A stretch of 59,840 nt of DNA, filler included, from Jimgerdemannia flammicorona (Eukaryota): the NCBI GenBank assembly GCA_003990765.1. It is 3 parts of 3 records of this genome, joined end to end, with 100 filler letters (N's around TTAATTAATTAA, not from the genome) between each part and the next. Parts side by side here need not be neighbours in the genome. Positions count along the whole stretch, not along the records: positions 1 to 19,882 come from RBNJ01001813.1; 2 more parts are not named here. One strand, written 5' to 3'. The first letter of the stretch is position 1, and each line of letters opens with the position of its first letter. The notes beneath the pieces were generated by a model. That model was not told where the DNA came from, did not search any database, and saw only the letters and a list, made by a program, of their open reading frames with translations. A program made the position numbers and the translations under genes. Positions 1,472-59,840 of this stretch are shown in pieces.

Positions 1472-3812
1472 GTCATGATATCACTCTCACAGCTCTCACC
1501 AGTATCTGTTCACCCATAGCTGCTGATGCTAAGAAATATTGGAAAAAGAGTAATCTAGAGAATTTTCAAAAGTTGAAAGTATTCCAAAATATCCGAAATA
1601 TCTACTCACAGATGAGGGATATGTAATATATATCTATAAGAAATATAATATAAAATATAAATATATATAAATTGTAATAATTCATTATATAGCAATAAGT
1701 CACTGGAAATTCCAATGGAAACTCCAATAAAATTTCCAATGCAGTAGTTAGAGATACTATATATAGCATAACTATATATAAATATATCTAGTATACTATA
1801 GTTCCAAATTAGATAAATATCCTCTATACTAAATATATTATAATCTTAGCTCTGCTTTCTCTAAATATAAGAATAAAAAGCAGTATTCTATCTAGAACTC
1901 TCAGACCTAACTGATTAATGATTCTAAGTCTGATCTACTTAGGATATAAGTATGGTATCTCTATTAGTATAAAAATCTGAAAGTAATACTTAAACTCTCC
2001 TCTATAATAGATAGAAAGAGCTTACTCAATAACAGATATTTGGAACTTAGCACTTTCTTATAGAACTCAGAACTTAGGGCTCATACATAGTTATCTTTAT
2101 TACATATCTGTAATATATTAATTCTATCAGAATATAGTTTTATTATAATTTAATAGTAGTAAAAGTTGACTCTAAATATAAATAACTCTATAGAGAATCT
2201 AGTCAATATCAAGTGATAATTAAAGAATATCTACACTCTAGCAACTCTCTAGAACAAAGCTAAAAAGATGAATAGAATTATCACTAAGTTGACTAAAATC
2301 TATATCTGCTAAGAAGATTTGACAAACTCAATAACAAAACTATCTAAAAAGTATTTGACACATTTATCATACTTAATAAAGAAGTCACCTATACTCTAAG
2401 AGTTAGAGAGAAATTTAAAAGATTAATTAGTAGTTATTTCTATAAAAAATATATAAGAGAATTCATCAAAGCTATAAGTAAATATTTTCTAAATTTTCTC
2501 TCTAATGATTACTACTATAAAGCCAAGACCTTTCGGAACTATAAAAAATATTCTACCAACTAAAGGAAATTTCACCTCTACTACTAAGTTCTTTATATAC
2601 AAGTAAAGACAATTTAATAATAAAGATTACAAACTACTAAACTCAGTAAAACTCCTACTATTTATTTTAATCTAGAAGAAATACCTGAGCCAGATACTAG
2701 TGACCTCAGTATAGTTATAAACCCACTATCAAGAATATTAAGTTTAATAAAAATTATTATAGAAAACCTGGCAATAACTCAATCAAGACTACTAATCTAT
2801 AGACTAATTACTAAATTCATCTATCTTAGTAATATATATTATAAAAGAAACAACTATATATCATACTACTCTTAAAGCAATAGTATCTAAAGAAAGACCA
2901 CTACTATCTCACCATATAGACAATAAGAGTAGTAGAATAATATTAGTAAATAAAAAGATAGCTATCTTAGCTAATCAAGTAGCTATACTTATCTAAACCC
3001 TTTATCTCAGCATTGAGACAAACAAGCTCATGAAAGGTCTCTAACTTACACTATTCAAATATAAAGCAGACTAAGTAATAGCATTTATTAGATAAGTAGA
3101 TACTAATTCTTATAATAATAGATAGAACTTAGATAGTACTCTCATTAATAATAAGTACTATAAGATTAAAGATCTCTATATAATTGTAGACTTATAAGTA
3201 GAAAAAGTTTACAAATATAGCTACTTATTAGTGGTACAATCTCTCAGTATACTCTCTCATCTGGAAAACTCATACAGAAATTGATATAAGTAAGAGAGAT
3301 AATGATCACTCTGACTATAATATCTATGTAGCTACTATAGAACTAAAGGAGCTGATCATCAAGCAGTTTTACAGCTCTGCCTATAATACTAAAACCAGAA
3401 TTAAGCTCAAGAATCTTTAATTTTACAATGATAGAAAAGAAGATATAGAGACATTTGTAACAAGATTAGAAACTCTTCTGAATACTATAGAAGTAGAGTA
3501 TAGCTAATAAAAATAGACTATAAATTGATCCAGAGTAGTATACTTCTTTAATGCAATCTCTGGATAGTTATTAGAAAGTTTATAAATAAGGATGATTCTA
3601 TAACTATCCATATGAGCATTAGTACTTAAAATAAGCTATTACTAGAGTATATACTATCTTAGTAGTCTAAAGACTAAGAGATAACAAAAACAACAAACAA
3701 TAATTCAAGAAGAAATATAAATCTTAAAATAACTCTCAGAAATTATAAGAAGGATATAAGAGACTATCTGATAAGAGATTTAAAGAACTCAAGAAGAAAG
3801 GAGTATGTTTTT

Positions 3813-4874
3813 TGTGGAACTGCAGGGTGGAGGTTGGGTGCCTCTGCTGCAGAAGGTTTGAGAGATGTGAACATCCCTCCAAGGGTCCTCTGGCGATCTG
3901 CTCTCTTTGGTGGGGCTGAATGGAGTTCGGAGGCTGCGGTTCAAGGGCTTTTGGTGGGGAGTGGCCAATGGAGCATACCGAATTGGCCTGCGATGGCAAG
4001 GTAATGAGAGGGAGGCGGCGTGGGGGCCTAATATGTGGTGTTGGGATAGACTGCTCCTGGGGGGTACTCCACTGGCTGCATTTGATATTGGGGAGGGAGT
4101 GGAGTGTCAGCGGGGGCTTGGCCAGGACCTTTGGTCAAGTAGCTGACAGGTGGTTGGAATTGGAGAGGAGTGGGACTGGGCAGGCATCTGGTCTTGGAGT
4201 GCTGAGGTGTGAAGGTGGCTTCCTCCCAAGTTCTGGGTGGTATGGTGGTGAATGTTGCGGAGAAATGTCATGCTGAATTTCTGCTCAGGGTATTTAGTAG
4301 AGGGTGGACAATTTGACTGCGAGGAGTGTTATGGTATTGGGCAGGCTGGGGGTCATGTACAGATGCAGGAACATTGACTGGGAGAGTGTGTGGTCTTGGG
4401 GGAATTTTGGGCTAAGATAGGGAATAGACTGGGTGTGGGGTATCAGTGGGTGGGGGAGGGGGGTCGCTGGGAGGACTTAAGATCTCGGCTTGTAGGTGGG
4501 GTGGGAGATAGTTGGCTCACTGTAGGATGGGTATTAGCAGTATGAGTGGGACTGGTGGGCTATTGGTTTTTTGTATTTGAAGAGGGGCAGTGGTTGGGGC
4601 TGCATGAGAAGGTATTAAGGTGGGAGGAGCTGGTGGGGGATCTGCTGACCGGATGGTGGGTGGGTTGGGGTCCTCAGGGAGGATGATGTCGCAGTTTGGT
4701 GATGAAGATCTGTGAGCAGAGTGGTGGGAGGGTGGGGATAGTATTCGATAAAGTGGTCTTTCACAGGGAAGGGGTAGGGGGGGAGGGCCCCCCTAGGGGG
4801 ATTAGATAGGGGGTGGGATCGTTGTAATTATATGGGATAGATGGGTATTAATAAAGGATGGGAGTCCAAGCGAC

Positions 4875-4936
<62 letters not shown>
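3813..4936 (+). mobile_element. 5'-truncated LINE (L1/Tx1-like)
   Basis: Poly(A) at 4878-4939. TSD AAAGGAGTATGTTTTT at 3797-3812 and 4937-4952. ORF2 C-terminal Cys/His motif (C..C....ET.EHWL.EC-like). Confidence 0.9.
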
Positions 4937-4941
<5 letters not shown>

Positions 4942-5069
4942 AGTATGTTTTTACTATAAGAAGATTAGACATATATTCTATAAATACTCTGATAAGAAGA
5001 CCAATATGAATAAGGAATTATCCTCCTCACATATTATAATAGGAGATAACCTCAAAGGAACTCTTAAGA

Positions 5070-5490
5070 AGATTAAGATCAAGAGATTCTACATCACTGC
5101 AAAAATTTCAAATAAAGTACATATATCTGATACTGGCTAAAATCTCTACTCAAGTATAAAATAATTATTAAATCAGACAAGTAAACAACTATCAGTACAG
5201 GTATTGAAATGGAAGTTCTTAAAGAAACTTATATCTATCTTATAGAAAGAAGTAGTCTGACTAAAAAAGAGAGACTCTGTATAGCTAGAGGAGTTATTGA
5301 TTAAGGATTTAAAAGCAAAATCAAGATTCTGCTACACAATAATAGACAGAAGTCAGTCAAAATTATATATGAAAAATAAATTACTCAAGCCATCATTAAG
5401 ATAATATATAATGATCTTGAAGTAGAAGAAACAAATAAGCTATCACTCTCTAATAGAGAAGAAAAAACTTTTGAATTATTAAAAAAGTAC
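5070..5490 (+). pseudogene. retrotransposon dUTPase remnant (Gypsy copy 1)
   Basis: Decayed dUTPase motifs in order: SDTG*NLYS (AGxDL), STGIEMEV, RSSL, RGVID*GF, ITQAI (IAQ), REEKTFELL (RGxxGFGSS). Confidence 0.8.
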
Positions 5491-5522
5491 TCTGTCAAAG
5501 TCAAAGAGAAGAGTAAGGTATA

Positions 5523-6256
5523 AGTGGTTGGCAGGTAGTCAGGATCAGCAAGGAGTGGGACTGGGCAGGTATCTGGTCTTGGAGTGCTGAGGTATGGTGG
5601 TGGCTTCCCCCCAAGTTCTGGGTAGTGTGGTGGTGAATGCTGCGAAGGAATATCATGTTGAATTTCCACACTGGGCATCTGGTGGATGGTGGCTGTTTTG
5701 ACTATAAGGAGTGTTACAATGTAGGGCAAGCTGGGGGTTTGGTACAGATACTGGAACATTGGCTGGGGGAGTGTGAGGTTTTGGGGGACTTTTGGATTGA
5801 AATAGAGAATAGACTGGGTATAGAGTGCAGGTCAGTGAATGAAGGGGACCACTGGGAGGACTTGAGATCTTGGCTGGTGGGGGGGGTGGGTGATAGTTGG
5901 CTCACTGTCAGGTGGATGTTAGCAGTTTAGATGGGTCTGGCAGGATATTGGCTATTTGTGTTTGAGGAGGGGTAGTAGATGAGCCTACAGGAGAAGGTTG
6001 TGAGGTGGGAGAAGCTGTTGGGGGATCTGTTGACTGGATGGTAGATTGGTTGGAGTCCTTCAGGGCAGTGGCAGCATGGTTTGGTAACAAGGATATGTGA
6101 ACAGAGTGGTGGAAGGGTTGGAATTATATTCAATAGAGTAGTATTTCATCAAGTAGGGGTAGAGGAGAGGGACCCCTCTAGGGGGATTGGATAGGGGGTG
6201 GGTTCATTGTATTTATATAGAATAGATGGGTGTAATAAAGGACAAGTCCAAGTGAC

Positions 6257-6305
<49 letters not shown>
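5523..6305 (+). mobile_element. 5'-truncated LINE (L1/Tx1-like)
   Basis: Poly(A) at about 6260-6308. 20-bp TSD AAAGAGAAGAGYAAGGTATA at 5503-5522 and 6306-6325. Confidence 0.9.
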
Positions 6306-6313
<8 letters not shown>

Positions 6314-6559
6314 GAGCAAGGTATAGAATATCATTTATATTGAAGGACCTCAGGATTGAGACTAAAAATAGTACTAATATATTGTAGATAGATATATTCC
6401 AATCAGATTATATTCTTATAGAATCAGAATATACTACTTTAAGTATATAAGTAAATATATTATATATATATGTATTCTCAAATCTAAGAAATATAAGCTA
6501 ACTATCTCTGAATAATAGAATGAAGCTATTAAGAATATTGATTATGAATATAGAGAAGT

Positions 6560-6708
6560 CAGAGAGAGGATGAGGAGGAAAGAGTGAGTATTGAGATAGA
6601 GTAGAGAGGGGTTGGGTGAGACTACTAGTGTGGTATAAAGACTATATATATATTATAAATTAGTTAATAAATAGGCCTAGTACTTATTGAAAAAGAAAAA
6701 AATAAATA
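6560..6708 (+). mobile_element. short poly(A) retroposon fragment with a different 3' end from the other LINE copies
   Basis: 13-bp TSD AATATAGAGAAGT at 6547-6559 and 6709-6721, plus AATAAA and an A-rich tail. Removing it restores the Gypsy reading frame into the protease. Confidence 0.7.
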
Positions 6709-7669
6709 AATATAGAGAAGTACAATATTGGAAATAAGAAGCTATTTTAGAAATAATTACTATCTAGTAAGAAGAAAATTCTAAATATATCTGTCTATAA
6801 TGAAAAATTAATAGAAATTCTATTGAAATTCTTATCAATAGTAGAGTAAGTAAGTATTATCTTGACAAAGAAATAGCTGACAAATTCAACCCCAAAAATA
6901 CAAAGAATCCAGCAGGTAATATTGCTATATTCAGTAATAGAACAACTTAGAAACTCTCCAAAATCTGTAAGAATACACTCTTATAACTCAGAGAATATGC
7001 TATAAGATTGACCTTTTACATTATATATCTTCCAGAACATAATCTTATATATGAAAAATTCTGACTTATATAGAAGAATTTCCACTTGACTGATGAATCT
7101 ATATAATCTCTCTAGGATATATTAAGCTATAGTCAGAACAGACTAAAAAGAAAACAAAACCCAAGTGTGATATTATTTCCACTATTCAAATGGAAAAGCT
7201 AATTTAGAAACCAGAGTAATATATCTATATATATATATATTGTCAAGAAATTACCAATAAATAGTAATGTTGATAATAATTTCTCTAAGTTACTAAATAA
7301 TAAAGATGATGAGAAAGACAACCTTCAAGAATTACTCAAGGAATATAAAAATGTTTTTTAAGAATCTTAAGGACTATTATCTATCTGAGTAGTAGAATAT
7401 ATATATTATTAAAATCATTTTTAGATCAGATCCTCTCTATTATGAAATCTCTCTACTAGTTCAGCCTGAGCTAGAAACTCTCAAGAAATAGCTAGCAGAC
7501 CTTTCAAACAAAGGCCTCATCTATCTATTAAAATTACTATATAGTATATTAATTCTTTTTATCTATAAGAAGGATGAAAGTATTCATATATATTAACTAC
7601 TGAGTACCTAACTAAATCTCTTTCAAGAATTAATATGCAATCTTACAAATTGAATAACTACTTGACTAA

Positions 7670-10600
7670 TATATATATATATATTTATAGTCACTTGAAC
7701 TTCTACTTTATTATCATCTAATATATATTATACTAATACAAATACAAATATATCTCTTACTTAATACTACTAGAGGCTTCTCCCCCCCATCTTCTCATCT
7801 CTCTGAAAAGTCACCATTCCCTCAGCTATTCCAATTCTCTCTCTACTCTGCCTATACATTTTCTCTATAAGTCTTCTATGAGACCCCTCTCAAGATCCCC
7901 ACTCTTCCACTAGCTATTCAAAAGGTCCAACATCAGCTACTCTTACCTCATAACCCACAATCCAAGTACTAACTACTGATTATCCTCAAATACATATAGC
8001 CAATATCTAGTAAGCTTAACCCAAATAGTCAGTACTTACTCAATAGTTAACCACTCATTATCAACCCCTCTCACCAGTCTTCTCTGAAGATCTCCCTACC
8101 TCTCTCCCACTATATATTCTGATAGGCAGACTCCTAAAAGACTCTTTATTGCCCTCTAAAGTCTTCCATTATCTTATACTCTCCCAGTCAATGCTCAGAA
8201 GTCTGCACCACTCCACTCTCCTGTCTGTTGTTGAGACACTCCTTATACTCCAATACTCTCTCTTTTACTAAATATCCTGACTGATAGTTCAATATCACAT
8301 TTTATCACAAAAGCCTCTACAATATTACCCAGAACTTAGGGGAGATCTACTATACTATCTACTTGCTCTATGACTAAATACTATTCCAGACCCACTTCTT
8401 ATCAATCCCCACTCCTTGTCATGCTATAGACCATAGGTCTTACCTATACTCCTGAAGACACTCTATACTATCCTCCAAGCTGAAGTCATCTACCAGTATA
8501 TCCTCCAACAGAAGACAGTCCTACCTTTATATTCTGGGTCTCCAGGTATCCTCTCTCTCATCACTCTACCATCTGATGTCAATCTGTTGAGCTCTATTAA
8601 TAACTCCCTATCAGAATCCCTTATAATATATCTTCAGCTCCTCTCTAGAACTACCAGAGAAGACAGATAACCAGATATATCATGGAGAGAGAACTATATC
8701 TTCCATACTCTCTGCATAAGAAGCATCCACTCACAGCCCCTCAACTCATTAGCTCACTTCAACCACTATGCTCTTAAGTAATATAGATACTTGGTAAAGT
8801 CTACCAGACCTAGTTCCCTTCAGTCTACTGATAATATCACTATCTCTTAGCCAATCTGACTCTTCTGCCCTACTCATATCCAAGATCTGGCTATCTTCAA
8901 CAGCCTCTTGACCACCTATGCCAGAAAGTCCAAGTATTACCCCAGATATCACAACTTGGGCAGCCAGTATACATTCAGTACTATTACTCTTCTAGCTAGA
9001 AAGATATATCAGCCACTCTACTCCAGAAGACTATTCCCCCACTCAATCAACTACTGCTCCCACTATTCTTGAAGCAGCAGAGACCTATATACTGAGAAGT
9101 AGATTCTCAGATAATGGACTGTCTCTTCTGCTGGAACAACTACTCTAATCATATCCTTCTCTACTATTTCTCCTCCTAACACTAGAGTCTCTTTTTTTTA
9201 TTTTTATTTTTATTTTTTTTTTTTTATAGTTGTTTAGACTTCTCTTTATTACTGCTGTCTATAATAATAATAATACAATATCACCCCATCCCCTCAACCA
9301 ATATTCCTTGGATCCACTCCTCCTCTCTCTATACCCCCCTGCTGGAGGACAACCCAGTCGCCCACCACCTGAATTCTCCTGCTACTTTTCCAGGAGATAC
9401 ACTGTACCAAACCCCTGTGACTCCCCCCACCTGGCCCCCACCCTTGCCACCAGCCATTCAAAATATCCAGTAATAACCATTCTCAACATACCACCCTATC
9501 TCCAACCCCAACCTGCTGGCCCTCCTCAAATACATGTACCCAATGCTCAGCCATCCCAACCCATATGGCCAGAGCCCAACTGAGGGTCAGCCATTCATTC
9601 CTAATCCCTCTGACCAGCCTTTGGCAGAGCTCTCCCCATCTTCCCTCTTCCCCACCCTCCAGGGCTCACAGTCCTAACCAGTCTGTGATACACCACCAAA
9701 ACACCCCCAAAATATCACACTCACCAAGCCAGTATTCAGGCATTTGTAACACTCCCCCTTTCTGTCCAACATCAAAACATTCCTTATACTCAAATGTGCC
9801 ACTGACCACCAAGTACCCAGACTGATAGTTCAATATCACATTCTGCCATAGAACTCACCACTATACCATCCAGAACTTGGGGGATAGCCACTGCATCACC
9901 TGCTTGCTCCAAAGCCAGAAACCATTCCAGTCCTACTCCTTGTCAATCCCAACCTCTGCCAGACTTCAGGCCAAAGGTCCCCACCTAAGCCCCACAAATA
10001 CTCCATTCCATCACTAAGCTAGAAGTCCTCCACCAAAACACTACCCAGTAGTAGCCTGTCTCATTACTATATCTGTAGTCCCCAATTCTCCTCTCCTTCA
10101 TCACTCTGCCACCAAAGTCCAATTCTCGTAGCACTATCTACCACCCTCCACCAAAAGTCCGTATATAGCATTCTCTTGCTCCCATCTATGGCCACCATCA
10201 CAAGCAGATTGCCAGAAGCTTCACAAGGGGAATACCAGACCTCTCGCACTCTCTGCATAAGTGGTACCCACTCCTGACCCCTCAGCTCACTCACCCTCCT
10301 CAGCCACCAGGCTCTCAAGCAATGAAGCCATTTGGTAAAGTCTACCAAATCCAACCTGCCTCTTTCCACTGATAGGGTAAGAATCTCCCAACCTATCTGA
10401 CTCTGCTGCCCTCCCCAAATCTATGATCTCGCCATCTTCAACAGTCTCCTGATCACTCAAGCTGGGAAATCCAGATAATACCCCACATACCACAGCTTCA
10501 GTAGCCAATATACATTCAGCACCATCACTCTTCCTGCCAAGGATATATGTCAACCACCCCATCACAGCAGTACTTTTCTCTACTCCAGAAGTTGTTGATC

Positions 10601-13600
10601 CCACCAAGTGCAGGGGAGCAGTGATCCAAACACCAAGAAGTAGATTCCCAAGTAACAAACTGACTCTCTTACTGGCACCACTGTCTCAATTATATTACTA
10701 CCAATGATTCCACCACCTAGCACCAGAGTCTTGCATTTGTGCTAATTGAGTTTAGCATCAGAGCTCCTCTCATACCATTCAACAGACCTTTGTAATTCCC
10801 CCACATCAGCCAATGAGCTCAGTCTAACCACCATGTCATCTACAAAGGCTCCCACCTTCCAATTTATCCCTAGAATATCCAAACCCCCAATTTGATGCCA
10901 GATTCTATCCAGTAGGGGCTCCAGGGAGAGGGCATATAAGATGGGTGACAAAGGGTCACCTTGTGGCACCCTATGACTAAGAGGAAAGGTTACACCCCTG
11001 TGGCTATTGATGATCAATATAGCCTGACTGTTTTCCAAAAGACTGATCAACAACCTGCAGAACCCTGGGGGAACACCAACCCATTTCTACACTCCCTCTA
11101 ACCAGATCCTCCTCACTCTATCATACACCTTCTCCTGATCCAAAAACACCAATCTGCCATCTACTCCTGCAGTCCAGGCCCCTTCAATCACACTATGTAT
11201 CCAAGCCATCCCATCATAGATCAACCTGTCACTGACAAATCCTTGTTGCTCCACACCAAGCACTTGCTGAGCGATTCTCTGCAGCCTCATCACCAATATC
11301 TTTATCACCAGTTTGTGGTCCATGTCAAGTAGCATGATTGGCCACCAGTTCTTCCAATCTTCCTGTCTCTTCTTATATTTATAGAGCAAGACCAGCCCTA
11401 GGCACTGGTCCCCAATCCAAGTTCCAGACTGAAAAACCTCACCACATATATATATATGTCATTTCCTCCAGTACCTTGCCCACTCCAGCCATCTTCTTCC
11501 AAAAATCCCAGGGCAGTCCATCCTCCTCTGGAGCCATCCCCTTACTTATCATAGCCAAAACCATGCAAATTTCCTCTCTCCTCACTGGATCCCCCAGAGT
11601 CCCCAGGCCCATTGCAGGGTCTGGATGCCACTTCTCTAGCTGCCTCTCAATGTTCAAAGCATCCTCCCCCTCTTCCTCCTCACTCCACAGATCCTCCCAA
11701 TGGATCCACAGTAATCTCAGAATTGCCAGAGTCCCCACCACCATCTCTCCATCCACATCCAGGACCCCATCTCACTGCTGCTTCATTCTCCATACTTGTA
11801 ACATCTGCGATAAAACCTAGTAGGTCTCTCTCCCTCCTCAAGCCCCTGCCACCTCAGCCATACCACCATCCCCTTCAGCCTAACCTCTTCCTCCCTTCAT
11901 AATACTTCCTTAAGCTCCTCAACTTCCTTCTGGATTCTCACAATATGCCAGTTGGTCACCTCCCAGTCTTCTAGCACCCCTGCCCATCTCCCCATGAGTA
12001 CTGCCAATTGCTGCGAGGCCCATAGCACCCTCTGCTACTGTTGGGCACACCTTCCTTTTCCTGCTTCCCTCCAGTACCCCTGAGCACTTGCTTTCAGCCT
12101 CCTCCAGCAGTCTCCAATCACCAGGCCCTGGTCCCACCACCTCCCAATATTCCCAATAACCTCCTTTTCCCAGTCTGCCCATAAAACCCCATCCTTCAAC
12201 AAAGAAGAATTTAGTCACCAATGTCCAGGCCCTTCCCCACTTCCCCCAAACCTCCCCCCTCCTAACAGACCCCAGTGATCTGACTACAGATACCAAACCA
12301 CCTCCAGCATTGTCCAGACATCTACTCTCCAGCATTTTGCCATCAATATCCAGTCAATCCTTGAGCCCAGCCCTGCCACTCAGTGAGTATAAATTCAACA
12401 ATCATCCCAAAACCATCTCCCTGAATCAACCAAAGAACTAAGCCTCTCCATCTTCAACCAGTCATCCAACCCACTATTGCTACTCCTCATTCCTCTCCCT
12501 CCATCTGTCTTGTCCATCCCCTTATCCTATACTATGTTGAAGTCACTCCCCAGACAATCAAACCCAACCTCCCCCAAGATACTGGTCTCTTTCAAACTTC
12601 AAATCCAATCCACCTATTCCCCTCTCTCTGCTGGGCAGTAACACAACCCAACTGTCAATGGGCTCCATCCTGGCCTCTTCCACACTCCTCACACCAACTA
12701 AGTCCCCCAATGTCCAATGTCCCCAATGTCCCCCAACCCCTTTGGAACAAGGATACCCACCCTCCCCATCCACACCCCCATTCCTTAGTCCAATTCTGTA
12801 AGTCCACATCTACCTCATAATGGACATCCTACAGTAAGAAGAGATCTGTATCTAGTCCCTATAGCCATCCAAATATGTACTTCCTCCTAGCTGCCTCCCA
12901 TAACCCATTCATGTTCAAAGAGAATATTCTAGTTGTACTGTTTATATTGAAAAATGTTTGAATTTGAGATTCCAGCCTAGTATTTCATGCTCATCTCATC
13001 CCTAGCCAGATCTAAGCACTGCTCTGCTTCCAATTCACCCTCTGCAACAGTCTGAGCATCCAATGCCTCCAAGATTTCTTGACATTCCACCCCATCCACC
13101 ACCTCCATCTCTGACTGATAGTCTGTGCAGACCACTCTCCACTTCTCCAATCTCTTCCTCGAGCCCCACAAGTATGCTGCCCAGTCATTCACAATCCCTC
13201 TAAGCTCCTCCTCCCTCTGATCATTGACTTGATATTCAACTGATTCCAAGAGAACTGCTAGGATCTCATTCCTCACCTTCCTCAGTACCTCCTCACCCCA
13301 AAGGATTTTCTCCCAATGCCTCTCTTCTATAACCCAGAAGTCCTCTCCCCCCAGCTCCTCTGCTGCCACCTCTTCCAGAGTCTTCCACAGCCACTTCTCC
13401 TCATTCACAATCTCTGTCATATTCTGGGCAACCTGACCACCCCCCACCTCTGGGTCCACTAAAGCGCTCCTCCTTACTGACTCATCCCACTCATTATCCA
13501 GTATATCCAGTAACTCCTCCTCCCCCTCTGCCCCACCCAGGACACTATACTGAGAGTGTACTCCTTCATTCATTTCTGCATCTGCCTCCACACTGCCTTC

Positions 13601-16600
13601 TCTCTCCTTTCTTGGTCCATCCTGTGCCCCACCTTGTGCCATCTTGCTTCCCTCCACCCAGACACTCTCATGCAATCCCACTCTCCCATCTCCTGAGCTG
13701 CTGCCTGCCCCACCACCACTCAACTTCACCAGCAGCTCCTTCTGGATTCTCCTCCCCTACATCTTCTCTCAGGTCACCCGATCCATCCTGACCCTCTTCC
13801 CATCGACTACTTCTACCACTGTCTTGGCCTCATACTCCTTCCAAGCCAATCTCCTCCTCTTGACCACTCCTGCCAGATCCTCCAGAGTCTCAAGCAAGTC
13901 TTCCTCCTCTTCCTGAGTTCCCTTCACCCACATGACCTTGCACTCCACTGGTCTCCACTTCAGAGTTACTGGCCAGTCCCTTGTCTTCCCCATGTTCTCT
14001 TTTCCAGCTAGCCTTACCTGGATGTCGACATCACCAGTCCAGAGCTCTGTACCCTCCCAGACCTTGAACCCAATATCCACAATCTCCCCATACTCCTTGA
14101 TCACCCCCACAATCAACTACCTGGTCCTCTCCCTTGATACTGTAGGAAGATCCAACACTGTCAACTGCACCACTCAGGGGTTCCAGCACATGCACCTGGC
14201 CATAGGGACCACAACCCTGCCCACTGTTACCCCCTTCTCTATGGTAGCCAGCAATGCTTCTTCTTCCTTAAACTCCACCTCAATCCCTTCTTTCCTCTTC
14301 AAAAACTTCACTGATGCTGCCCCTTTTGCCTCCTGCACCACCAGCCCCAAGATCATTCTCACAGTTACTGCCAAGCCCCTGAAACACATTGTGATGGTGA
14401 ATTCTGACCTTGATTTCTTGAGTAACAGTACTGACACCATGTCCATCACCCCATTCACCAGATCCCCAAGCCTCATGCCCACCCCCTGTCCTGAACCATC
14501 AACTGCCATTATATTTGGATTTTTTTCAGATCCCCAATCACAGCTCCATCAACAGTCACATCTCCAGCCCTTACTCCCCTCCCTCCCCTACTGCCAGACA
14601 CTCCTCTGGGCACTCCTCTCTGTCCTCCAGCAGCAGTCATTGATGCCTTCCCCAGGCCCAGCCAATCATCCAGACTAGAGGCCATTCTTCCCATCTTGAT
14701 CTTGTCTGCAAAGGTCAATCTCTCTCCTCCTTGTTGCCTCAGGCTGCCCCTCCCTCCACCACCAGTACCTCAACCAGCCATAGAGGCCCCTGGCATCCCC
14801 AAACCATCTCCCCTCCTCTCCACTCACTGCCAGCCAAAGACACCACCACCTCTCTGGCCAGCATACTCACCAGTTCAATCATTGCCATCCATGTCAATAG
14901 TTGTCTATCCTAACACTAGAGTCTCACACTTATACCAGTTCAGCTTGGTACCAGAGTACTCCTCATATCATTCCACAGCTCTCTTCAGTGTGACTACAGC
15001 CCAGCCCAATTAATATATCATCAGCAAAGGCTCCAATCTTCCAATTCACTTCAAGAATATTTAACCCCCCCATCTTGTACCTAATCCTATCCAACAGAGA
15101 CTCCAGAGAAAGAGCATAAAGGATTAGTGATAGTTGATCTCTTTGTAGCACTCCTTTGCCCAGAGAAAATGAAATCTCTCTATATTTATTTACCAATATT
15201 GCTGCCTAACTTCTCTCCAATAACCTGATTAAAGATAGTCTGAACTCTGGGGGAACCCCTATATACTTCAGTACCCCTGCCAGTCATACTTACTGGACCC
15301 TATCATATGCCTTCTCCTGGTTCAGAAAAACTAGCTAATTATCTACCCCTGTAGTCTATATATCTTAAATAACTCCATACACTCAAGCTGTTCTATCTCT
15401 TATCAAGCATTCCCTAATGAAGCCTCTCTGTTCTGCCTCTAGCACCTGCTGAGCTATCTCTTATAGTCTAGCCACTAATATCTTCATAACCAATGTATAA
15501 ATCTATATTCAAAAACATAATCAGCCTCCAGTTCTTCTACTCCTCCTGTCTCCTCTTATTCTTATATAGTAAAGCTACTAGTTCTAGATAGTGTCCCCCA
15601 ATTCACTCCCCTGATCCAATAATCTCATGATACATCTATGTCATCTCCTCCAAAGCTAACTCAATACTTGCTATTCTCTTCCAGAAATCCCAAGGTAGAC
15701 TATCCTCTCCAGGAGCTGTTCTGAGACTTATTGTTGTCAAAACCCTACATATCTCCCCACCTTGGACAGATATGCCAAAGTCCCCTAGGCTCTCTACTGA
15801 GTCTGGGCATCAATCCTCCAGATGCTGTTCAATGTCCAGGACATCTTTCCCATCTTTCTCTTCACTCTACAAATGTTCCCACCATGAGCTCAATGGGTCC
15901 AAGATCTCTGAAATTCCAACCACCATCTCTTCTGCCTCATCCAATATACCCTCCCACTATTGTCTCACCCTCCTTACCCAAAGAAATCTTAACAGAAACT
16001 TCATAGATTGCTCCCCCTCTTCTATACTCTGCCATCTCAACTGAGCTACTATACTTTTCACCTATAGATTTTTCTCCTGCCTCAGCATCTCCTTCAGCTC
16101 CTCTATCTCAAGCTGGACCCACTGAACTCTTCAATCTCCATCTTCTCCATTGTTTAGTAAATTTGCCCAGGTCATCAACAACTTCTCCAATCTCTAAGAG
16201 ACCTACCTTAAACAGTTCCTCTTCTTATTACCCCTCACCTTTCCTATCTTCCCCCAGAAGCTTTGAGCCTCTAATTTCAAATACTGCCACCAGTCTCCAA
16301 TCTCCAGCCCTCTCACTCTAGTTAAGAATTTTGGAATTTATTTTCACCACCTATACATCCTATAATGAGAGCTATCCCAGCAATGTGATATTTAGGCACT
16401 AATGTCCAGGCCCTTTCTCACTTCCCCCAAACCTCTTACAATCCAGCAGACCCCAATGATCAGACCTTGGGCATCAAATCATCTGTAGAGAACTCCAAAC
16501 ATCCTCTCTTCAATACTCTGCAGTCAAGATCCAGTCAATCCTTGAGCTCAATCCTGCTACCTAGTGAGTATAGACTCTATAATCTCTTTACCCAAGTTAC

Positions 16601-19145
16601 CCTGCATTTATCAAAGAGCTCAATCTTTTAATCTCCTCTCAGCCTTCTACACCTTTGCTCCTACCAGCCATCCCCCTCTCTCTAACAGTTCTGTTCAACT
16701 ATCTATCTCAATATATTGAAGTCTCTACCCAAATAGTTAATCTCTGCCTCTGCCATCACTCCTACATCTTAGAGTTCTCTTATCCACTCTACATACTCTC
16801 CTCTTTCTGCAGGGCAGTAATAAGACCCAATAGTTAAAGGGCTCCAGCCTGGCTCTACCATATCCTCTCTCCTATATTACTCTGTATCTCTAATTTTCAA
16901 TGTCCCTTATATCTCCTTTGCCCTTCTGAACCAAAATTCCCACCCAACTCTGCCTAACAGCTGCTCTACCCCATTCTCTCATCCAGTCTAGTCTGTCCAA
17001 GTCTACATCACATTTAATATCCTGCAGCAGAAACAGATCTGCATCTAGCTCCTTTAACTAGTAGAAAATATTCTGACATCTTATCAAACTCTATAACCTA
17101 TTGATATTTAAAGATAGAATTCTAGTTGTACTGTTCATATTAAATAATTATTATGAAGAAAGTTATCCACTCTACAATTCCATACTCACCATATCACTAG
17201 TAATATCCAGGTTCCTCTCTATCTCAAGCTCCTCAGTCTCCTCTTGCTGGACATCTAGAGCTACCAAGATCTCCTGATAGTCCTCACCATCCACAGTTTC
17301 TATGATAGACTGATACTTCTCACACACTATCTGCTACATTACTAACTACTTCCTAGATAGGCTATACAGTCATTCATAATCTCCAGAAGTACTGCCTCTC
17401 TGTTGCCATCTATCTCATACTCCTCTGCCTCCAACAGACCTACCATCAGCTCATCTTGAAGCTTCTGCACTACCTCTTCTCCTCTCAGAACCTCCCTCCA
17501 GTACCTCTTACTAATTATCTGAAAGTCTACCTCACCTAACTCATCTGTAGTAATATTCATCATTATCTTCTACAACCATCTCTCCTTTTCTATAGCCTCA
17601 TCCACTCTATAGACTATCTCCTACTCCCCAGTCCCTTGACTGCTAACAGCATCTGCTCTCACCAACTTATCCCAGTCTTTCTCTAGTATATTCTACAGCT
17701 TATTAGTTTCCTCTTTCTCTATAGACATATTATACTGAACTTAAGTCACCTCCACTATCACCTTATTCTCAACCACTGTACCTTGTCCTGAGTCTCCTCT
17801 TTTCTCCAGGGTCACCTTCATCACCATCCCCTTCTCTCCTGCCTAAGTACTAACCCTCAATCTAACTTCATTAGTAACATTCTCTCCCTCTGGCTGCCCT
17901 CCCAACTTTGCCAGTAAATTCTTCTGATACTTCCTCTCTTATACCCTCTCTCAGATAGTCTGATCCAGCTACACACACTTGTCATTTACTATCTCTACCA
18001 CTATCTTAGCCTCAAACTCCTTCCAGACTAATCTTCTCTTCTCAATAGTCCTGGTCAGATCCTCTAATACCTCCAGCAAGTCCTCTTCCACCTCTGGCAT
18101 CTCTTTGATCCTTGAGACCTTATACTCCACTAGTCCTTACTTAAATACTACCAGCTAATATCTTTCTTTTCCAGTATTCTTCTTGTCTACCAACCTTACC
18201 CTGATATCCATATTCTCAGTTCTGAACTCTATACCCTTCCAGACCCAGAAACCAACATCCACCACATCTCTATACTACTTAATGACATTGATAATCAGCT
18301 CCCTAGCCTCTCCCTTCTTTTTTATAGATACATTCACCACCACCAGCTGTACTACCTGAAGGTCTCAGCATAAGTACCAAGCAATAGAGATAGCTATCTC
18401 TCTTACTACTACTCTTTTCTCCAATGCTCCCAACATCAACTCCTCCTTCTTGAACCCCACCCCACTTTCTCCAGTCTCTTCAAGAACTTTACCAAGGTAG
18501 CTCCTCTCACCTCCTGAGCCAGCAGCCCCAAAACTATTCTTGCTATAATTACTAAGCTCCAGAAGTACAATATGATGGTAAATTTGGACACCAATTTCTT
18601 GAGTAATAGTGCTGCCACTAGGTCTATTATACCATCAATCAGATCTCCAGACCTTATGCTCTGCCCCTGTCCAGCCCCACTATCAGCTGTCACATCTGGA
18701 TTTTTTTCCAGATTAGCAGTCTTTTCTTCATCAGCAGTCCTGCTCTCTCCAGCTACTATTTCCCTAGCTCTGTCACTACTACTCCCTGAGGCCTCTCTAC
18801 CAGACCCTATAGCCTCCTCCTTTTCCTTATTTCTCTATAGCCAGATCTTCAAGCCTGTTGATGATTACTCAGCCTTGATCTTGTCAGCAAAGCTCACTCT
18901 TTCAGTCTCTTGTCTCATAGTACCACCCCTCCCCTTTAATGTCCACCAGCTAGCAAGCCCAACAGACTTCCCCCCAAGCTATGATTTCTCCCCACATGCT
19001 GCCAGTTGAATATACTAGGGTCACTCTGGCCAGCACACTCCTCTAATCACTCATTAGTTACTATGTTGTTATTATCTTTACTCCAAAAACTATGTTGAAA
19101 GTATTGTTAGAAGTTTGTATAATATAAATTATAGTAGAGAGAGCT
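7670..19145 (-). mobile_element. near full-length decayed LINE A (ORF1 plus APE-RT ORF2), split by LINE B at 9192-14907
   Basis: The family 3' end CAAGTGACTATAA lies on the minus strand at about 7685-7697. RT motifs GVLQRDQLSLILYALSLE..GAFADD at 14963-15196. ORF1 remnants at 17342-18900 are homologous to ORF1 of LINE B. Confidence 0.8.
9192..14907 (-). mobile_element. near full-length LINE B (L1/Tx1-like): ORF1 about 14718-12977, ORF2 about 12950-9380
   Basis: Poly(T) at 9192-9225. 18-bp TSD TCCTAACACTAGAGTCTC at 9174-9191 and 14908-14925. APE start FSLNMNGL..FLL*DVH. RT motifs FLDQEKVYDRV, PQGDPLSPILY and AFVDD. Confidence 0.9.
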
Positions 19146-19400
19146 GTTAACTAAGTATATAAGGTAAAGGCAAAGATCTTTTTACTTATTGATCTTATAT
19201 TTGGATATCACCAAATTTGTATCAAGAAAGAAAATATCTCAAAAACAGTATTTTAAATAAGATTCAGATACTATAAAGTCTATATAATACAATTCAGTCT
19301 AACTAATATACCAGTAACCTTTCAGATACTGATGAATAATTTATTTTAAAAATATCTTAGAATATTTGTCCTAGTATATCTAGATGATATCCTAATATAT

Positions 19401-19882
19401 TATAATGTGCCAGCTCAATAGAGGCAAATTACAAGGTTGGGGATTGATGTAGTTTGGCTTGAGCCCCCAGTTACTTTGTCAAAAAGTAACAAAATGTTCT
19501 AAGATTCCTGAGGTCCTTGGTGTTTAGTGGTATAATAGTTAAAGCTGGATATCTGTGAGTGATTTGTGTGTTGATTTCCTAATTGAGACAGTTCTTTAGG
19601 TGTAGTAGCGATTTGTGTAAATGGGTTTCCTTCTTGGGTCAACTGGGAATATCACAATTCATGTAGCAAGGCAATTTCCAAAAGTATCCAATTTCTGGAT
19701 GATAGCTTTGGTGCAACAATCTCCATGTAGCATGATGATCTTGATGCGACAATCTTGGGGTAGCACAATGGGTTCCTTATATGGACGTTCTGAGAATTTG
19801 GTGGATAACTCAATTTGACTCACTGGGAATAGAGGATGGCACAGATTCTTCTATACCAGGCTTACTTTTTTTTTTTTTTTTT
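19401..19882. repeat. LTR-like repeat family (TGTAACGTGCCGGCTCAATGGAGG...), copy interrupting the Gypsy RT
   Basis: Near-identical to 59714-59840 and to a more decayed copy at 40439. All three begin at the same TG/TA boundary. Confidence 0.65.
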
Positions 19883-19982
19883 NNNNNNNNNNNNNNNNNN
19901 NNNNNNNNNNNNNNNNNNNNNNNNNNTTAATTAATTAANNNNNNNNNNNNNNNNNNNNNNNNNNNNNNNNNNNNNNNNNNNN
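19883..19982. other. artificial 100-nt linker/gap
   Basis: N44-TTAATTAATTAA-N44 (stop codons in all six frames). Confidence 0.97.
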
Positions 19983-22490: not shown

Positions 22491-25400
22491 ATGATGGAAT
22501 ATCATTGGGTTGAGTTGCCATTCGTTTGGGCTGGGGCAGATACAGTTCAGAAAATTGGCATGCATGTTTTTGATCCTAGAGATGTATTCAGCAAAGAGGT
22601 ATATCCTCCTCATCATATAGATGTAGTGTATCTTGGTGGCAATCTCATTCAGGTAGAGGAGAGAGCCCTCTTACTTGTTGATAAAAGCTCTTATGGTCAT
22701 GTTATCCATCCGAATGAGGACCATGTGGCCCTCTCAATAGTGGTTGTTGATCTGGAGCATGAACAGGACTGTCTTGAGTTCACAGTAGTTGATGGAGTGG
22801 CATCATTCCACAGGGGTGTAAGTGCCCATCGCTTGCTGTGTCGCTTGGCTGGTGGACATGGAAGTAGTGATTTTGAAGCTCCAATCTAGGTCACTGGTAT
22901 CTGTATTGACTGTGACCTTGGAGTGTTCAGTAAGTAGGGACCGACCATTCCAGCTGGAGAGCTTGAGAGACCACCAATAGAGGTCCTCCTGAGATGTTGG
23001 AGAGATGTATATAAGACCATTCCAGTTGTGGTTATTGGCATTAAGGGAGTCCTGGATGTCCTGAATGAGAGACCATACTCAAAACTGGGCTGGAAAGATT
23101 ACCTGTACTGTAGAGTTGCAAAGACCAACTAGCAATACCATCTTGTATATAGGGATCATGGTTGACAGTTGGAGGAGAGATATAGATTCCTTGCAGATCT
23201 TGTATACCTTATCCTTAGGTAAGCAGAGTTCCATGTTCATGGTATTGACCAGGAACCCCAGGAATGTCTGTTACTGCATGGGTTCCTATATGTATTTTAT
23301 TGGGTGTAGAAGAAAGCCCAATATCTCCAGATGGTCACGAACGATCCTCCTATATCAGAGTGCTTCGTCTCTCATAGAGGCCAGGAGATATATATCATCA
23401 ATGTAATAGATGAGCCAGACACCCCTTGCTTGGAGAGGCTCCAGAACCACTACCATCATCTTCATCCAGATGTATGGAGCAGATGACAGACCAAACAGCA
23501 TAGTATGGAATTTCCAGTTGATCTTCCACCACTAAAAGGTGAGGAACTATTGATTGGCTGGGTGTAAGGGAATGTGTAGGTAGGTATCCTTTATATTGAT
23601 CTTGATGAGGTGGTCACCAGGCCAGACTATATGGCATAGGGTCTGGATACCTTCTATCTTGAAGTACAATTGCCTCATGAACTCATTCAGTGAATGGGTA
23701 TTGAGGCAGGCTTGGTTCTTGTCAATCTGGGGGATTGTGAAGATATTGGAGAAGAAGAGCAGCTCTCCATCCTGGGTGGGGTAAATGGCCTCCTTGTCCT
23801 GAAACTCAGTGATAGCAGTGTCTACCAGGGCCTTCTCTATTGCTGACATACCCTTCTTATAGAAGAACCTGGGTTCAGTCCAGAGTGGGGTCAGGGGTTG
23901 TAATCATTTGATGTGGTTCTTACTATAGGCTATATTGATGACCCAGCAGTCGATGCCCATAGTTGTCCAAACAGTCTTGGGGACCTGGGCTAACTGTGCC
24001 CCCACCTTTGAGATAATATTTGAGGTCTTGGGGGTGATAGTATGGTAGATCAATTGGTCCTTTAGAGTTGAGCAGCAGGTGTTGATATGCTGTTGCCCAG
24101 ATTCAGAGCTCAGTACTGGAAACCTCCTTGGCTGTATATACTCAGAGTGTGGTTCTGGGAGCTCTGTTGTTGAGAATTTTGATAGTTGAAGTAATGGCTA
24201 CCCCAGGACCCATTTCCCCAGCCATGACCATCAGGACCATGGGATGGGGTTGGATTACCTCTTGGTTTGGAGGTTGTCTTGACCATGAGGAGATGCTTGT
24301 GGTGTTTGGTGTCATCATAAAAATAGCGGATAAATTTAGTACCAAACAGGTTGCCATCATACTCAGAGCCAGAAGCCACTGTGTGGCAGGTGGAGATGAG
24401 GGCAGGTGACCATCTTGTGGATTTGGCTAGTTCAATGCAGTGGCAGATATGGATATGTTCTACTTCATAGAATCTGATCCAGAGAGAGTCTTGCAGTTTT
24501 TCCACCAAAGGGAGAATAACAGTATTATGGACCAGTCCATGGTAGTAGAGATCAGCTCTATCAGAGCAAGGTTCAAGGGCCTGGAGGGTGATGGTGATGG
24601 GCCAGAGGGTGTTGTAGATTGCTTGTTGGGTGTCAGCAAGAACCTTGTCTACTTCTTTGGTGGATTTTCTGAAATCATCTGTGAATGCTTTGTCAATAGA
24701 GGGGGTATAGAGAACACCCCATTTGGGTTTGGGGTTTCAATGGAGGAGTTTCTTGAAACTGGTGAAGAAGAGGTATACTTTGATATATTCTGGTGGAATG
24801 GTATCAGTGAATGTGGGAGATATGTAATATCTCCTGATGGTCCAAGACTTGGCTGCTGTGAGGAATTCATCATCACTGCTGTTGACATCATTGTGGAGGT
24901 CCATACCATCAGAATTCCCATTGAGTCCAAGGACTACAGGGACGGAATGTCAGGAATTCCAAAGGAAAAGGGCATCAATGAGGCTTTATTGGTCATCTGG
25001 TTTGTGATCTCTGGATCCAGCAGAGGAGGGCAGAGGCTGACTGTGACAGCCTCAGTGATCTGGCAAAGGAACTCGGTACACTTGACCAGGGCAGCCTGTT
25101 GTTGTTGAAGGAGTTGTTCATTGCTCATAGTAATGTAATAAAAAAAGATTCTGTGGATCATAAGAAGAGGCGAACTGCCAAGCTTTCAAAATGACTAAGA
25201 GACTCTATGGGAGTCAAGATATTCTTTTATTACCATATTTTACATGAAATGTCTCATATATATATGTCTTAGACAGAAGGAAATTCGCATAGATAAACCC
25301 ATGTTTAAGACAAAATAAAGTATATCAATGCTTTCAGGATGGCAGAAATAAACTCTGAAATGGTCTGGAACAAAGCAATACTTTGTCACTTTTTCTTCTT

Positions 25401-31497: not shown

Positions 31498-31956
31498 TGT
31501 GACAGTACAGCCAAACTTAGAAGAAGGAAATAGAGAATAGACACTTGATTGCACCCATTCCCAAAGTAGTATAAGTCTTATAGTTAGCAGTCCTCAATTT
31601 CAACATTGTCTAAATTCTTAGACATTATCCAAATCGAACACCCCGATTTAGTATAGTATTTAGACATTGTCCAAATGTTTCGACAAAGTCCAAATGACTC
31701 ATTTATTACTTAGCCACCCTCTCATAGCTAGCAAACTTGTATAAATAACCCAGTATCTTTAAGTGAATAAACCTCAGATCGAAATAGTTCAAAGCAAAGA
31801 GATAGCAAAAGAACTAGTAAGCCTGTGGGCAGATACACTTCAAACTCACCCACCCTCCCCTACAACTTCAAGAGACTCTGCGAGAGTCAGAACAGTCAAG
31901 TTTTCAAGATACAGAAATCCAATATACTTCCAAGAGTAAGCGTCCACTACGTTACA
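31498..31956 (+). repeat. 5' LTR
   Basis: TGTGACAG...GTTACA with TATAAATA at about 31740 and AATAAA at about 31766. About 95% identical to the 3' LTR by manual alignment. Confidence 0.95.
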
Positions 31957-35000: not shown

Positions 35001-36063
35001 CATCCTTATAACACTGGGAGATGAAGTACAGTACTACAGCACCTTGGACTTATATTCAGGATTTCACCAAATCGGACTCACAGAGATGGCAAGTGAAAAG
35101 TCAGCCTTCATCACCCCAGACGGAACCTACATCTACCTATAAATGCCATTCAGAATGTGTAATGCACCAGCAAGCTTTCAACAAATGATGAACAAAATCT
35201 TCCGCTATGACATGGGAAGATGGATGATGGTTTATGTCAATGATGTAATCATCTACAGCAAGACACCTGAGGAACATCTGCAGAACATACAGCAGATAAT
35301 GGAGAGACTAAGACAACATGGCCTTTATATCAAACCCAAGAAGTGCAAGTTTGCAGAAATCGAGATCTCCTATCTTGGCCATATTATCAATTGAGATGGA
35401 ACACACATGGACCCCCTCAAAATACAAGTGGTAGCAGCATACCCAAGACCCACTACTGTTACAGAAGCCCAAGCCTTCATGAGACTTGCCTCCTACTATC
35501 GCAGATTCATTAGAGGATTCTCCAACATCGCAGGTCCAATCTATGAACTCAACAAGAAGGATACCAAGTTCCAGTGGACTGGCAGACAACAAAAAGCATT
35601 TGATGAACTCAAGATCAGACTAACTCAGGCACCTATCCTCAGACGACCCAATTGGCCCCAAGAATTTATCCTTCAGATGGATGTAAGTGCACAAGGACTA
35701 GGAGCAGTCCTAGCTCAAAAAGAAGACAAAAAAGAGTATGTCATTGCATATATTAGCTATGGAACCAGAGGAGCTGAAAAAGAATATGAGTCCTACAAGT
35801 TGGAATGCCTTGCAGTCATCTGGGCTGTGGAAAAGTTCCACTACTATCTGGCTGGAAGACACTTCACCATCCAGACGGACCACTCAGCTCTCACCTGGCT
35901 ACTGACAACTGGACAATCCAAGGGAATCTATGCCAGATAGATAATGAAGTTACAAGCCTATAATGTAACCATTGTACACCGCCCTAGAAGAACAAATTCC
36001 AATACAGATGCTCTCTCATGGACACCTCGAACTACCTCCAACCAACAAATCAATCATGAATAA
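32071..36063 (+). pseudogene. gag-PR-dUTPase-RT-RNase H polyprotein (single frame, nonsense-interrupted)
   Basis: All ORF fragments from 32467 to 35940 are in the same frame. CYSCKEEGHYSYEC knuckle, IIDTGA protease, dUTPase (AGMDI, RSSL, GVIDSDYTG, RLAQM, RGKKGFGST), RT (YVNDV), RH (MDVS..GLGAVL, LECLAV, TDH). Confidence 0.92.
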
Positions 36064-37741: not shown

Positions 37742-38200
37742 TGTGACAGTACAGCCAAACTTGGAAGATGGAAATAGGGAATAGACACTTGATTGCACCC
37801 ATTCCCAAAGTAGTATAAGCCTTATAGTTAGCAGTCCTCAATTTCGACATTGTCTAAATTCTTAGACATTATCCAAATTGAACACCCTGATTTAGTATAG
37901 TATTTAGACATTGTCCAAATGTTTCGACAAAGTCCAAATGACTCATTTATTACTTAGCCACCCTCTCATAGCTAGCAAACTTGTATAAATAACCTAGTAT
38001 CTTCAAGTGAATAAACCTCAGATCGAAATAGTTCAAAGCAAAGAGATAGCAAAGGAACTAGTAAGCCTGTGGGCAGATACATTTCGAACTTACCCACCCT
38101 CCCCTACAACTTCAAGAGACTCTGTGAGAGTCAGAATAGTCAAGTTTTCAAGATACAGAAATCTGACATACTTTCAAGAGTAAGCATCTGCTACGTTTCA
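37742..38200 (+). repeat. 3' LTR
   Basis: Direct repeat of 31498-31956. Confidence 0.95.
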
Positions 38201-39862: not shown

Positions 39863-39962
39863 NNNNNNNNNNNNNNNNNNNNNNNNNNNNNNNNNNNNNN
39901 NNNNNNTTAATTAATTAANNNNNNNNNNNNNNNNNNNNNNNNNNNNNNNNNNNNNNNNNNNN
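39863..39962. other. artificial 100-nt linker/gap
   Basis: N44-TTAATTAATTAA-N44. Confidence 0.97.
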
Positions 39963-44950: not shown

Positions 44951-45104
44951 TGTTGCTTTTCATGAAACGATGTCCATCTGGCCTAGCTCACTCCAAATGG
45001 TTTGAGCAAAAGAAGTCCTGTCCCTTAATATCTTCTTTCCTAGTAAACATCTCTGTGACTGAAGCCTTTTTTATTTTTTATCTTTGGATATTTTGGGTAA
45101 ATAT

Positions 45105-49345: not shown

Positions 49346-49368
49346 TTGATAGTTTTGACCTTGATGGT

Positions 49369-59713: not shown

Positions 59714-59840
59714 TGTAACGTGCCGGCTCAATGGAGGCAAATTACAAGGTTGGGGGTTGATGTAGTTTGGCTTGAGCCCCCAGTTACTTTGTTAAAAGCA
59801 ACAAAATGTTCTTGGTGTTTAGCGGTATAATAGTCAAGAT
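59714..59840. repeat. LTR-like repeat, least decayed copy, runs off the window
   Basis: TGTAACGTGCCGGCTCAATGGAGGC.. matches 19401 onward. Confidence 0.65.

Follow-up and report, generated by a model that had tools for sequence, protein, structure and literature searches.

A Cys/His module beside dUTPase in two non-sister lineages of Ty3/Gypsy retrotransposons, decayed in one copy and open in another

In the 59,840-nt stretch of Jimgerdemannia flammicorona DNA analyzed here (assembly GCA_003990765.1; hereafter the window), positions 6381-6467 are the mutated, AT-rich remnant of a Cys/His (CH) module that is preserved in an open frame around 33910-33996. The CH module is a conserved, rare domain of about 55 amino acid residues, found almost exclusively beside dUTPase in retrotransposons of two architectures whose reverse transcriptases (RTs) are not sisters: lineage A, represented in the window by copy 1, with a chromovirus-like RT and a reconstructed order gag-CCHC-dUTPase-CH-PR-RT (PR, aspartic protease); and lineage B, represented by copy 2, with an RT apparently of a different clade and the order gag-PR-CH-dUTPase-RT. 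On balance we think it probable that one account joins these facts, in which i) RIP-like transition decay of a putative zinc-binding CH module produced 6381-6467; ii) the module would be an accessory domain of dUTPase-carrying Ty3/Gypsy retrotransposons; iii) it would have reached both lineages by one old transfer or from a shared source; and iv) it may serve as a tether for the enzyme.

Two copies of the module in one window

The alignment of 6381-6467 with 33910-33996 runs without a gap, as the first-pass annotation had said, with 45 of 87 bases identical and 69 of 87 either identical or differing by a C>T or G>A change in the AT-rich decayed copy. When the intact 87-mer was slid across both strands of the window (59,574 + 59,754 placements, about 119,000), 69 was the unique top score, the next best reached 56, and the AT-rich placements (n = 8,574) averaged 38 (sd 6.2). 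A decay-aware Smith-Waterman comparison of 33300-35200 with copy 1 gave 33893-33998 and 6364-6469 as its top match. Scoring by decay is justified because transitions dominate repeat divergence in the window, where they account for 33 of 54, 47 of 72, and 48 of 61 differences between pairs of retroposon copies, and for 8 of the 9 differences between the LTRs of copy 2. The reversals by single transitions that had been proposed codon by codon (tgt>tat, cct>tct, cat>tat, gga>aga) are correct: in the copy 1 module Cys and His have become Tyr, Gly has become Arg, and a stop stands in place of the upstream Trp (tgg>tag). The window consists of three pieces of about 19.9 kb, with N44-TTAATTAATTAA-N44 spacers at 19883-19982 and 39863-39962; copy 1 is on one piece and copy 2 on another, and the two need not be physically linked.

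Copy 1 reads on the + strand. Its gag (3208-3582) was located by tblastn with P0002 gag residues 28-152 (E = 1.4e-12) and with P0019 residues 27-143, and is followed, between gag and the CCHC knuckle, by a poly(A)-ended retroposon (3813-4939, + strand; repeat family D1/D3/D4) with a target-site duplication at about 3797-3812 = 4937-4952 (duplicated 16-mer at 3796) and a poly(A) tract at 4878-4939, where the sequence common to the family ends. The decayed gag CCHC knuckle (4946-4987; by translation, frame 4802) now reads C-F-Y-Y-K-K-I-R-H-I-F-Y-K-Y and is distinct from the CH module; P0002 residues 233-314 align to 4916-5155 in tblastn. The dUTPase (5152-5472) contains in-frame stops, and with these read as X it matches Pfam PF00692 at E = 3.8e-12 (46.5 bits; cut-off 22), with tblastn support from P0002 residues 326-420 and P0014 residues 38-145. 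A second poly(A)-ended retroposon of the repeat family (5523-6307, + strand; poly(A) 6260-6308) parts the dUTPase from the module; its target-site duplication (5505-5522 = 6308-6325) has one C/T difference, and once it is excised (a shift of 803 nt) dUTPase and module share one frame. The decayed CH module (6364-6469; decay-aware alignment) is followed by the aspartic protease (6790-7110, approximate limits; by translation), whose active-site motif reads I-L-I-N-S-R-V at 6828-6848, and by the N-terminal part of a decayed chromovirus-like RT (7290-7772; by translation); a Pfam search of the PR-RT region with stops read as X found no family. Module, protease, and RT all fall within one collinear alignment, in which residues 3-483 of P0022, a protein with the order dUTPase-CH-PR-RT, match copy 1 from 5272 to 7772 with a score of 301.5, compared with 63 ± 7 (maximum 83) for 30 shuffles; the alignment was a decay-tolerant protein comparison with a shifted matrix in which the second insertion was skipped. 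The order gag-dUTPase-CPHG-PR-RT claimed for copy 1 is thus confirmed by collinearity with P0022, by Pfam for dUTPase, and by tblastn for gag. A further piece of A-type RT at 19191-19400 on the + strand (tblastn with P0022 residues 450-519, 48.6% identity, E = 1.8e-15) is probably the RT of copy 1 resuming past some 11.4 kb of other sequence (7800-19190).

Reading 6381-6467 as a decayed CCHC knuckle was rejected, as copy 1 has its CCHC elsewhere, at 4946-4987, on the upstream side of dUTPase.

Copy 2 spans 31498 to about 38145, also on the + strand, between a 5′ LTR (31498-31900, direct repeat D2) and a 3′ LTR (37742-38145, direct repeat), each with an approximate 3′ end; the pair is 97% identical over 300 nt and 96% over 400 nt. 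Between them lie the aspartic protease (33442-33726; Pfam Asp_protease_2, E = 6.5e-06; tblastn with P0007 residues 157-280), the CH module in open frame (33874-34053; phmmer, a 12-sequence alignment, and AlphaFold at pLDDT 91.9), dUTPase (34162-34539; PF00692, E = 1.8e-25, 89.6 bits, cut-off 22), RT (34777-35391; Pfam RVT_1 and an RT HMM), RNase H (35575-35922; RT_RNaseH_2), the integrase zinc finger (36209-36376; Integrase_H2C2), and the integrase core (36431-36706; rve). Flanking LTRs together with the pol order PR-RT-RNaseH-INT make copy 2 a Ty3/Gypsy (Metaviridae) element, and the full Pfam order, PR-module-dUTPase-RT-RNaseH-INT, confirms the order PR-CPHG-dUTPase-RT that had been claimed for it. 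Despite its 96-97% identical LTRs, copy 2 is not intact: in-frame stops occur at 33604, 33772, 35140, 35392, and 36383, that in RT (35140-35142) aligning with a Gln in P0021, and the frame changes between RNase H and integrase at 35940-35969.

Several other repeats were seen in the window. Three + strand retroposon copies (929-1389, 3813-4939, and 5523-6308) are G-rich and C-poor, with GC skew up to +0.57, end in 29-62 nt of poly(A), and are variably 5′-truncated, and the two inside copy 1 bear 15-18-nt target-site duplications; the family looks non-LTR (LINE/SINE-like), no coding domain having been identified in it. The 11.4 kb between 7800 and 19190 are C-rich and G-poor on the + strand (GC skew -0.34 to -0.56), hold internal repeats (8267/9808 and 12209/16390), and are probably nested elements on the - strand. 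Regions 41001-45000 and 49001-54000 have a GC content close to normal and strong GC skews, of about -0.4 to -0.5 and +0.4 to +0.5; they may be additional members of the same skewed family, some in each orientation. A 90-nt direct repeat (19395-19484 and 59708-59797, 92% identical), the first copy of which overlaps the end of the A-type RT fragment, lies within about 45-490 nt of piece ends on both occasions, suggesting that the contigs end within one and the same family of repeats. Lastly, a - strand ORF at 23547-23903, with neighboring - strand ORFs at 24110-24736, has an RT-like motif (…TYLHIPLHP…) which we take to resemble DIRS/BEL-type RTs, and would represent another class of transposable element in the middle piece.

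A rare domain family with a predicted zinc-binding fold

A phmmer search of 1.84 billion representative proteins with the 60-aa module returned 17 proteins at E <= 0.001, of which 12 carry the motif and the other five are repetitive and were judged spurious by eye; a profile search among longer proteins gave 14 matches, 13 with PF00692; a local HMM added P0027; and a metagenome scan with a 5-sequence alignment added L001, a single locus from 157 pattern matches, with a 1281-aa open frame reading CCHC-PR-CH-dUTPase-RT. Counting both window copies and L001 along with 18 proteins, 21 members were seen, most of them on short metagenome contigs. They share the signature WY..I..GY.P.G.CPHG…C..C, or more fully a core of W/F-Y-x2-[IL]-x-[DE]-G-[YF]-x-P-x-G-x-C-P-H-G-[IV]-x-M-Y-x7-C-x2-C and then a basic helix. 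In the 12-sequence alignment C23, C38, and C41 are invariant, and G16, P19, P24, H25, and M29 are conserved in at least 90%. The six-ligand core first proposed, C-P-H-G-x4-C-x2-H-x3-C-x2-C, does not hold up, as 6 of the 12 aligned members have another residue at its middle Cys and 5 at its middle His; the conserved ligand set is therefore C-x-H…C-x2-C, and zinc would likely be held by Cys-His-Cys-Cys.

The module appears to lie outside the named domains, as had been suspected. No Pfam-A family reaches its cut-off on it: the best sub-threshold hits are zf-C5HC2 (PF02928), seen on the window's own module only, with 17.0 bits where 22 are required (E = 0.0074), zf_RING_Vps8_fungal (E = 0.0023), and DUF4379, a "probable treble clef" (E = 0.033). 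The zf-CCHC family (PF00098) had no match on the module in 13 sequences at E <= 1, and the spacing of the module is C-x-H-x12-C-x2-C as opposed to C-x2-C-x4-H-x4-C for the knuckle. A PDB sequence search with the CH profile gave no match (best E = 1.3). Nor could a description of the module be found in the literature on dUTPase-bearing LTR/Gypsy elements, where this zinc module appears to be undescribed.

AlphaFold2, run on the 12-row alignment, predicts a structure with pLDDT 91.9 and pTM 0.71, consisting of a helix (6-14), a hairpin (21-29), and two further helices (32-37 and 39-59); strands 21-22 and 28-29 flank C23-P-H25, and C38 and C41 open helix 39-59, which is long and mostly basic. The predicted topology resembles a treble clef, but since fold searches gave no match, "treble-clef-like" is only our reading of the topology: Foldseek against PDB had a best E of 5, VIA-align against 48,161 chains a best Z of 4.3, and the BFVD fold search a best E of 0.23, none of them a meaningful match, and the best ESM Atlas cosine, 0.78, is below the useful range. 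A complex prediction for three copy-2 dUTPases with the CH module and zinc scored 0.00 in a run without controls, and weighs neither for nor against an association.

The copy 2 module is about 52-57% identical to A-type members. Between lineages CH scores about 59-61 bits over 60 aa, whereas dUTPase scores 44-63 bits over 137 aa, so that by this comparison the module appears better conserved per residue than the enzyme it accompanies. A tree of CH alone (47 columns) did not resolve the branching.

Near-exclusive association with dUTPase, in mirrored order

dUTPase adjoins CH in 19 of 21 members, the two exceptions, of 82 and 157 aa, being fragments; this bears out the earlier suggestion that the motif is linked to dUTPase rather than equally frequent without it. 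The order is dUTPase>CH in 12 members (P0002, P0003, P0004, P0007, P0011, P0014, P0017, P0018, P0019, P0020, P0022, and copy 1) and CH>dUTPase in 7 (P0001, P0010, P0015, P0021, P0027, L001, and copy 2), and each order is found in open reading frames (P0022, P0019, and P0011 for the former; P0021, P0027, and L001 for the latter). In all ten sequences where PR, CH, and dUTPase are detectable together (P0007, P0011, P0014, P0019, P0022, and copy 1; P0015, P0027, L001, and copy 2), CH lies between PR and dUTPase, so the two architectures are mirror images and not the result of a translocated block. Lineage A has linkers of 5-27 residues between CH and dUTPase, and lineage B has linkers of 30-131. 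The intact proteins P0011 and P0019 have the order CCHC-dUTPase-CH-PR, and a separate CCHC knuckle is present in both lineages (P0002, P0011, P0019, L001, and copy 1).

Two dUTPase-bearing relatives of lineage B, P0025 and P0026, had no CH module detectable by the CH HMM, and their weak CH-like motifs reach z = 6.3 and 4.5 against shuffles, as the best of 12 queries. Both motifs lie between PR and dUTPase: in P0025 (about 690-720) a C-P-x-C-G knuckle replaces C-P-H-G, and P0026 (about 775-850) has two tandem C-x(1,2)-H-G…C-x2-C motifs. Tandem CH modules would offer a route to the order swap.

Two RT lineages

Of the 120 long relatives listed for the A-type RT, nearly all come from plants and green algae and one from an arachnid; they are mostly 50-66% identical, none of the 120 has a dUTPase, and several proteins among them carry PF00385. 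The 120 relatives listed for the B-type RT, from animals, Glomeromycotina, and unnamed sources, are 37-54% identical, and three of them have a dUTPase (P0025, P0026, and P0027). Conservation between A-type and B-type RTs is itself poor: the only alignment between A and B that spans CH to RT is 27% identical overall. In an RT tree of 70 rows and 186 columns, built by a quick method, P0022 falls in a clade (99*) with 27 cassette-free plant or algal chromovirus-like rows, five B rows group apart from it, and the distribution of the cassette requires at least two changes on the tree. An AU test, run after the tree had been seen and on a sister hypothesis that came from the first-pass annotation, rejects a tree that unites the six cassette rows in a single clade (delta lnL 65.5, p-AU 4.3e-5). 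By these analyses the A and B RTs are not sisters: the claim of distant lineages stands, and the sister placement that would have indicated rearrangement rather than exchange was not found. Judged by RT grouping, lineage A is chromovirus-like, and so is copy 1, being collinear with P0022; this too agrees with the earlier claim. No integrase attributable to copy 1 was identified in the window.

What the module might do

Invariant Cys and His residues, a confidently predicted small fold, and a basic C-terminal helix together point to a zinc finger, and the tolerance of CH on either side of dUTPase with variable linkers fits a tether. From the position, the conservation, and the predicted basic helix of the module we favor a tethering or positioning role: CH would bind zinc; it would tether or position the trimeric dUTPase in Gag-Pol or in the reverse-transcription complex; and its basic helix may bind nucleic acid, like the nucleocapsid in betaretroviral NC-dUTPase fusions. 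A bolder version, which we regard as possible but doubtful, makes CH a dedicated dUTPase partner, a new zinc-finger fold anchoring the trimer, with the pair exchanged between unrelated Gypsy lineages; if so, the pair would work as a unit with the module under stronger constraint than the enzyme, and would parallel the betaretroviral NC-dUTPase fusion by convergence.

The constant place of CH at the PR-dUTPase junction (ten of ten sequences, in either order) also keeps alive a quite different role, as a structural or processing element of that junction and not a nucleic-acid tether: CH might be a rigid spacer that lets dimeric PR and trimeric dUTPase fold next to each other within a single polyprotein, or might present cleavage sites, and linkers of 5 to 131 residues on the dUTPase side are compatible with this. 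Yet a mere spacer needs neither invariant Cys nor conservation as strong as that of an enzyme, and no such module is reported, in the accessible part of the source (PMC5408684), for published dUTPase retroelements in which PR lies next to dUTPase; we consider a junction role unlikely.

How the module came to be in both lineages

A dUTPase tree of 14 rows, with no outgroup, has a single branch (support 88/94) between the 5 A rows and the 9 B rows. This clean split by architecture argues for one old event and not for repeated or ongoing shuffling. The broader proposal that a dUTPase-plus-module cassette moved between lineages stands in part: the module is homologous and the RTs are not sisters, but the mirrored order does not fit simple cut-and-paste movement of one cassette. 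Copy-2 dUTPase matches full-length A-type dUTPases at 44-63 bits and cellular and viral dUTPases in PDB at 45-74 bits (top 73.8); being no closer to the former than to the latter, it does not demonstrate a specific common origin of the two enzymes. The clean split of the dUTPase tree points to one old exchange or capture. In the account that we prefer, the module, probably with dUTPase, would have passed once, long ago, from one lineage to the other, or from one source into both, and the order would have been swapped then or later, for instance through a tandem duplication with subsequent partial loss.

That each lineage took up dUTPase and module separately, from a combined host or viral gene or from two sources, is in our judgment rather unlikely. 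Fungal elements do seem to have gained dUTPase independently from different sources, according to the part of Novikova et al. (2010, PMC2864245) that is accessible; the A and B dUTPases are no closer mutually than to PDB dUTPases by bit score; and mirrored order fits separate insertions. Against this, the module is clearly homologous across lineages (about 52-57% identity), the true module matches among 1.84 billion representative proteins are all beside retroelement domains or in short fragments, and no cellular-looking dUTPase-CH protein was found in that set. Purely vertical descent, in which one ancestor of both lineages carried dUTPase and CH and the order was later rearranged internally with no transfer, would also yield a single-branch A/B dUTPase split (88/94) and a module between PR and dUTPase in both lineages; it is nevertheless improbable, for the A-type RT nests among cassette-free chromovirus-like RTs, a single cassette-bearing RT clade is rejected (p-AU 4.3e-5), and the presence of dUTPase in only 0 of 120 and 3 of 120 of the nearest long RT relatives listed means that vertical descent would need many independent losses. 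Finally, C>T and G>A decay renders any Cys/His-rich motif Tyr-rich and 6381-6467 lies upstream of PR, the usual place of a nucleocapsid knuckle, but it is hardly credible that 6381-6467 is a chance resemblance in AT-rich decayed DNA or a decayed gag CCHC knuckle, given the unique top score among about 119,000 placements (69 versus 56), a spacing that fits C-x-H-x12-C-x2-C and not C-x2-C-x4-H-x4-C, the order CCHC-dUTPase-CH-PR in intact P0011 and P0019, and the collinearity of the whole region with P0022.

Significance and comparison with known systems

Retroelement dUTPases are thought to exclude uracil from new cDNA. To our knowledge, how dUTPase is delivered to the site of reverse transcription is known for only a few retroviruses, and a confidently folding predicted zinc domain near dUTPase in two non-sister Gypsy lineages offers a testable handle on delivery. 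The module would also add an unnamed domain family to transposable element annotation libraries and is a probable case of modular exchange between LTR retrotransposon lineages, and its recovery shows that decay-aware scoring can retrieve homology from heavily transition-decayed copies.

In the betaretroviral NC-dUTPase transframe fusion (MPMV/MMTV p30), a zinc-finger nucleic-acid-binding domain is joined to dUTPase upstream of PR, and we see in it a functional analogy for the CCHC-dUTPase-CH-PR order of lineage A; the betaretroviral fingers, however, are ordinary CCHC knuckles N-terminal to dUTPase, and CH differs from them in spacing, predicted structure, and position. The gag CCHC knuckle (PF00098) is, like CH, a short Cys/His zinc motif in the Gag-Pol region, but its C-x2-C-x4-H-x4-C spacing is not that of CH.

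Nearer at hand are the dUTPase-bearing LTR retrotransposons of fungi and bdelloid rotifers, with which we compare CH by published description, as far as the accessible parts of the two sources go. Among fungi, such elements include PosPlaTy3-3, -4, and -5 of Postia placenta, elements of Phanerochaete chrysosporium, and Tuber Tmt1 (Novikova et al. 2010, PMC2864245); their dUTPase position varies between the N-terminus of Pol and a place between PR and RT, the same two positions as in lineages A and B, and only CCHC and HHCC zinc fingers are mentioned there. In the bdelloid elements Juno, Vesta, and TelKA, dUTPase lies between PR and RT (Rodriguez & Arkhipova 2017, PMC5408684), and in Juno an "extra Zn knuckle" comes after the dUTPase and before RT; there too a zinc motif adjoins dUTPase, but in the order PR-dUTPase-knuckle as opposed to PR-CH-dUTPase here; other knuckles in bdelloid elements are CX2CX4HX4C (PMC5408684). 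The variable position of dUTPase in fungal Gypsy elements was thus already published, and CH is a new accessory domain variant in dUTPase-bearing Gypsy elements.
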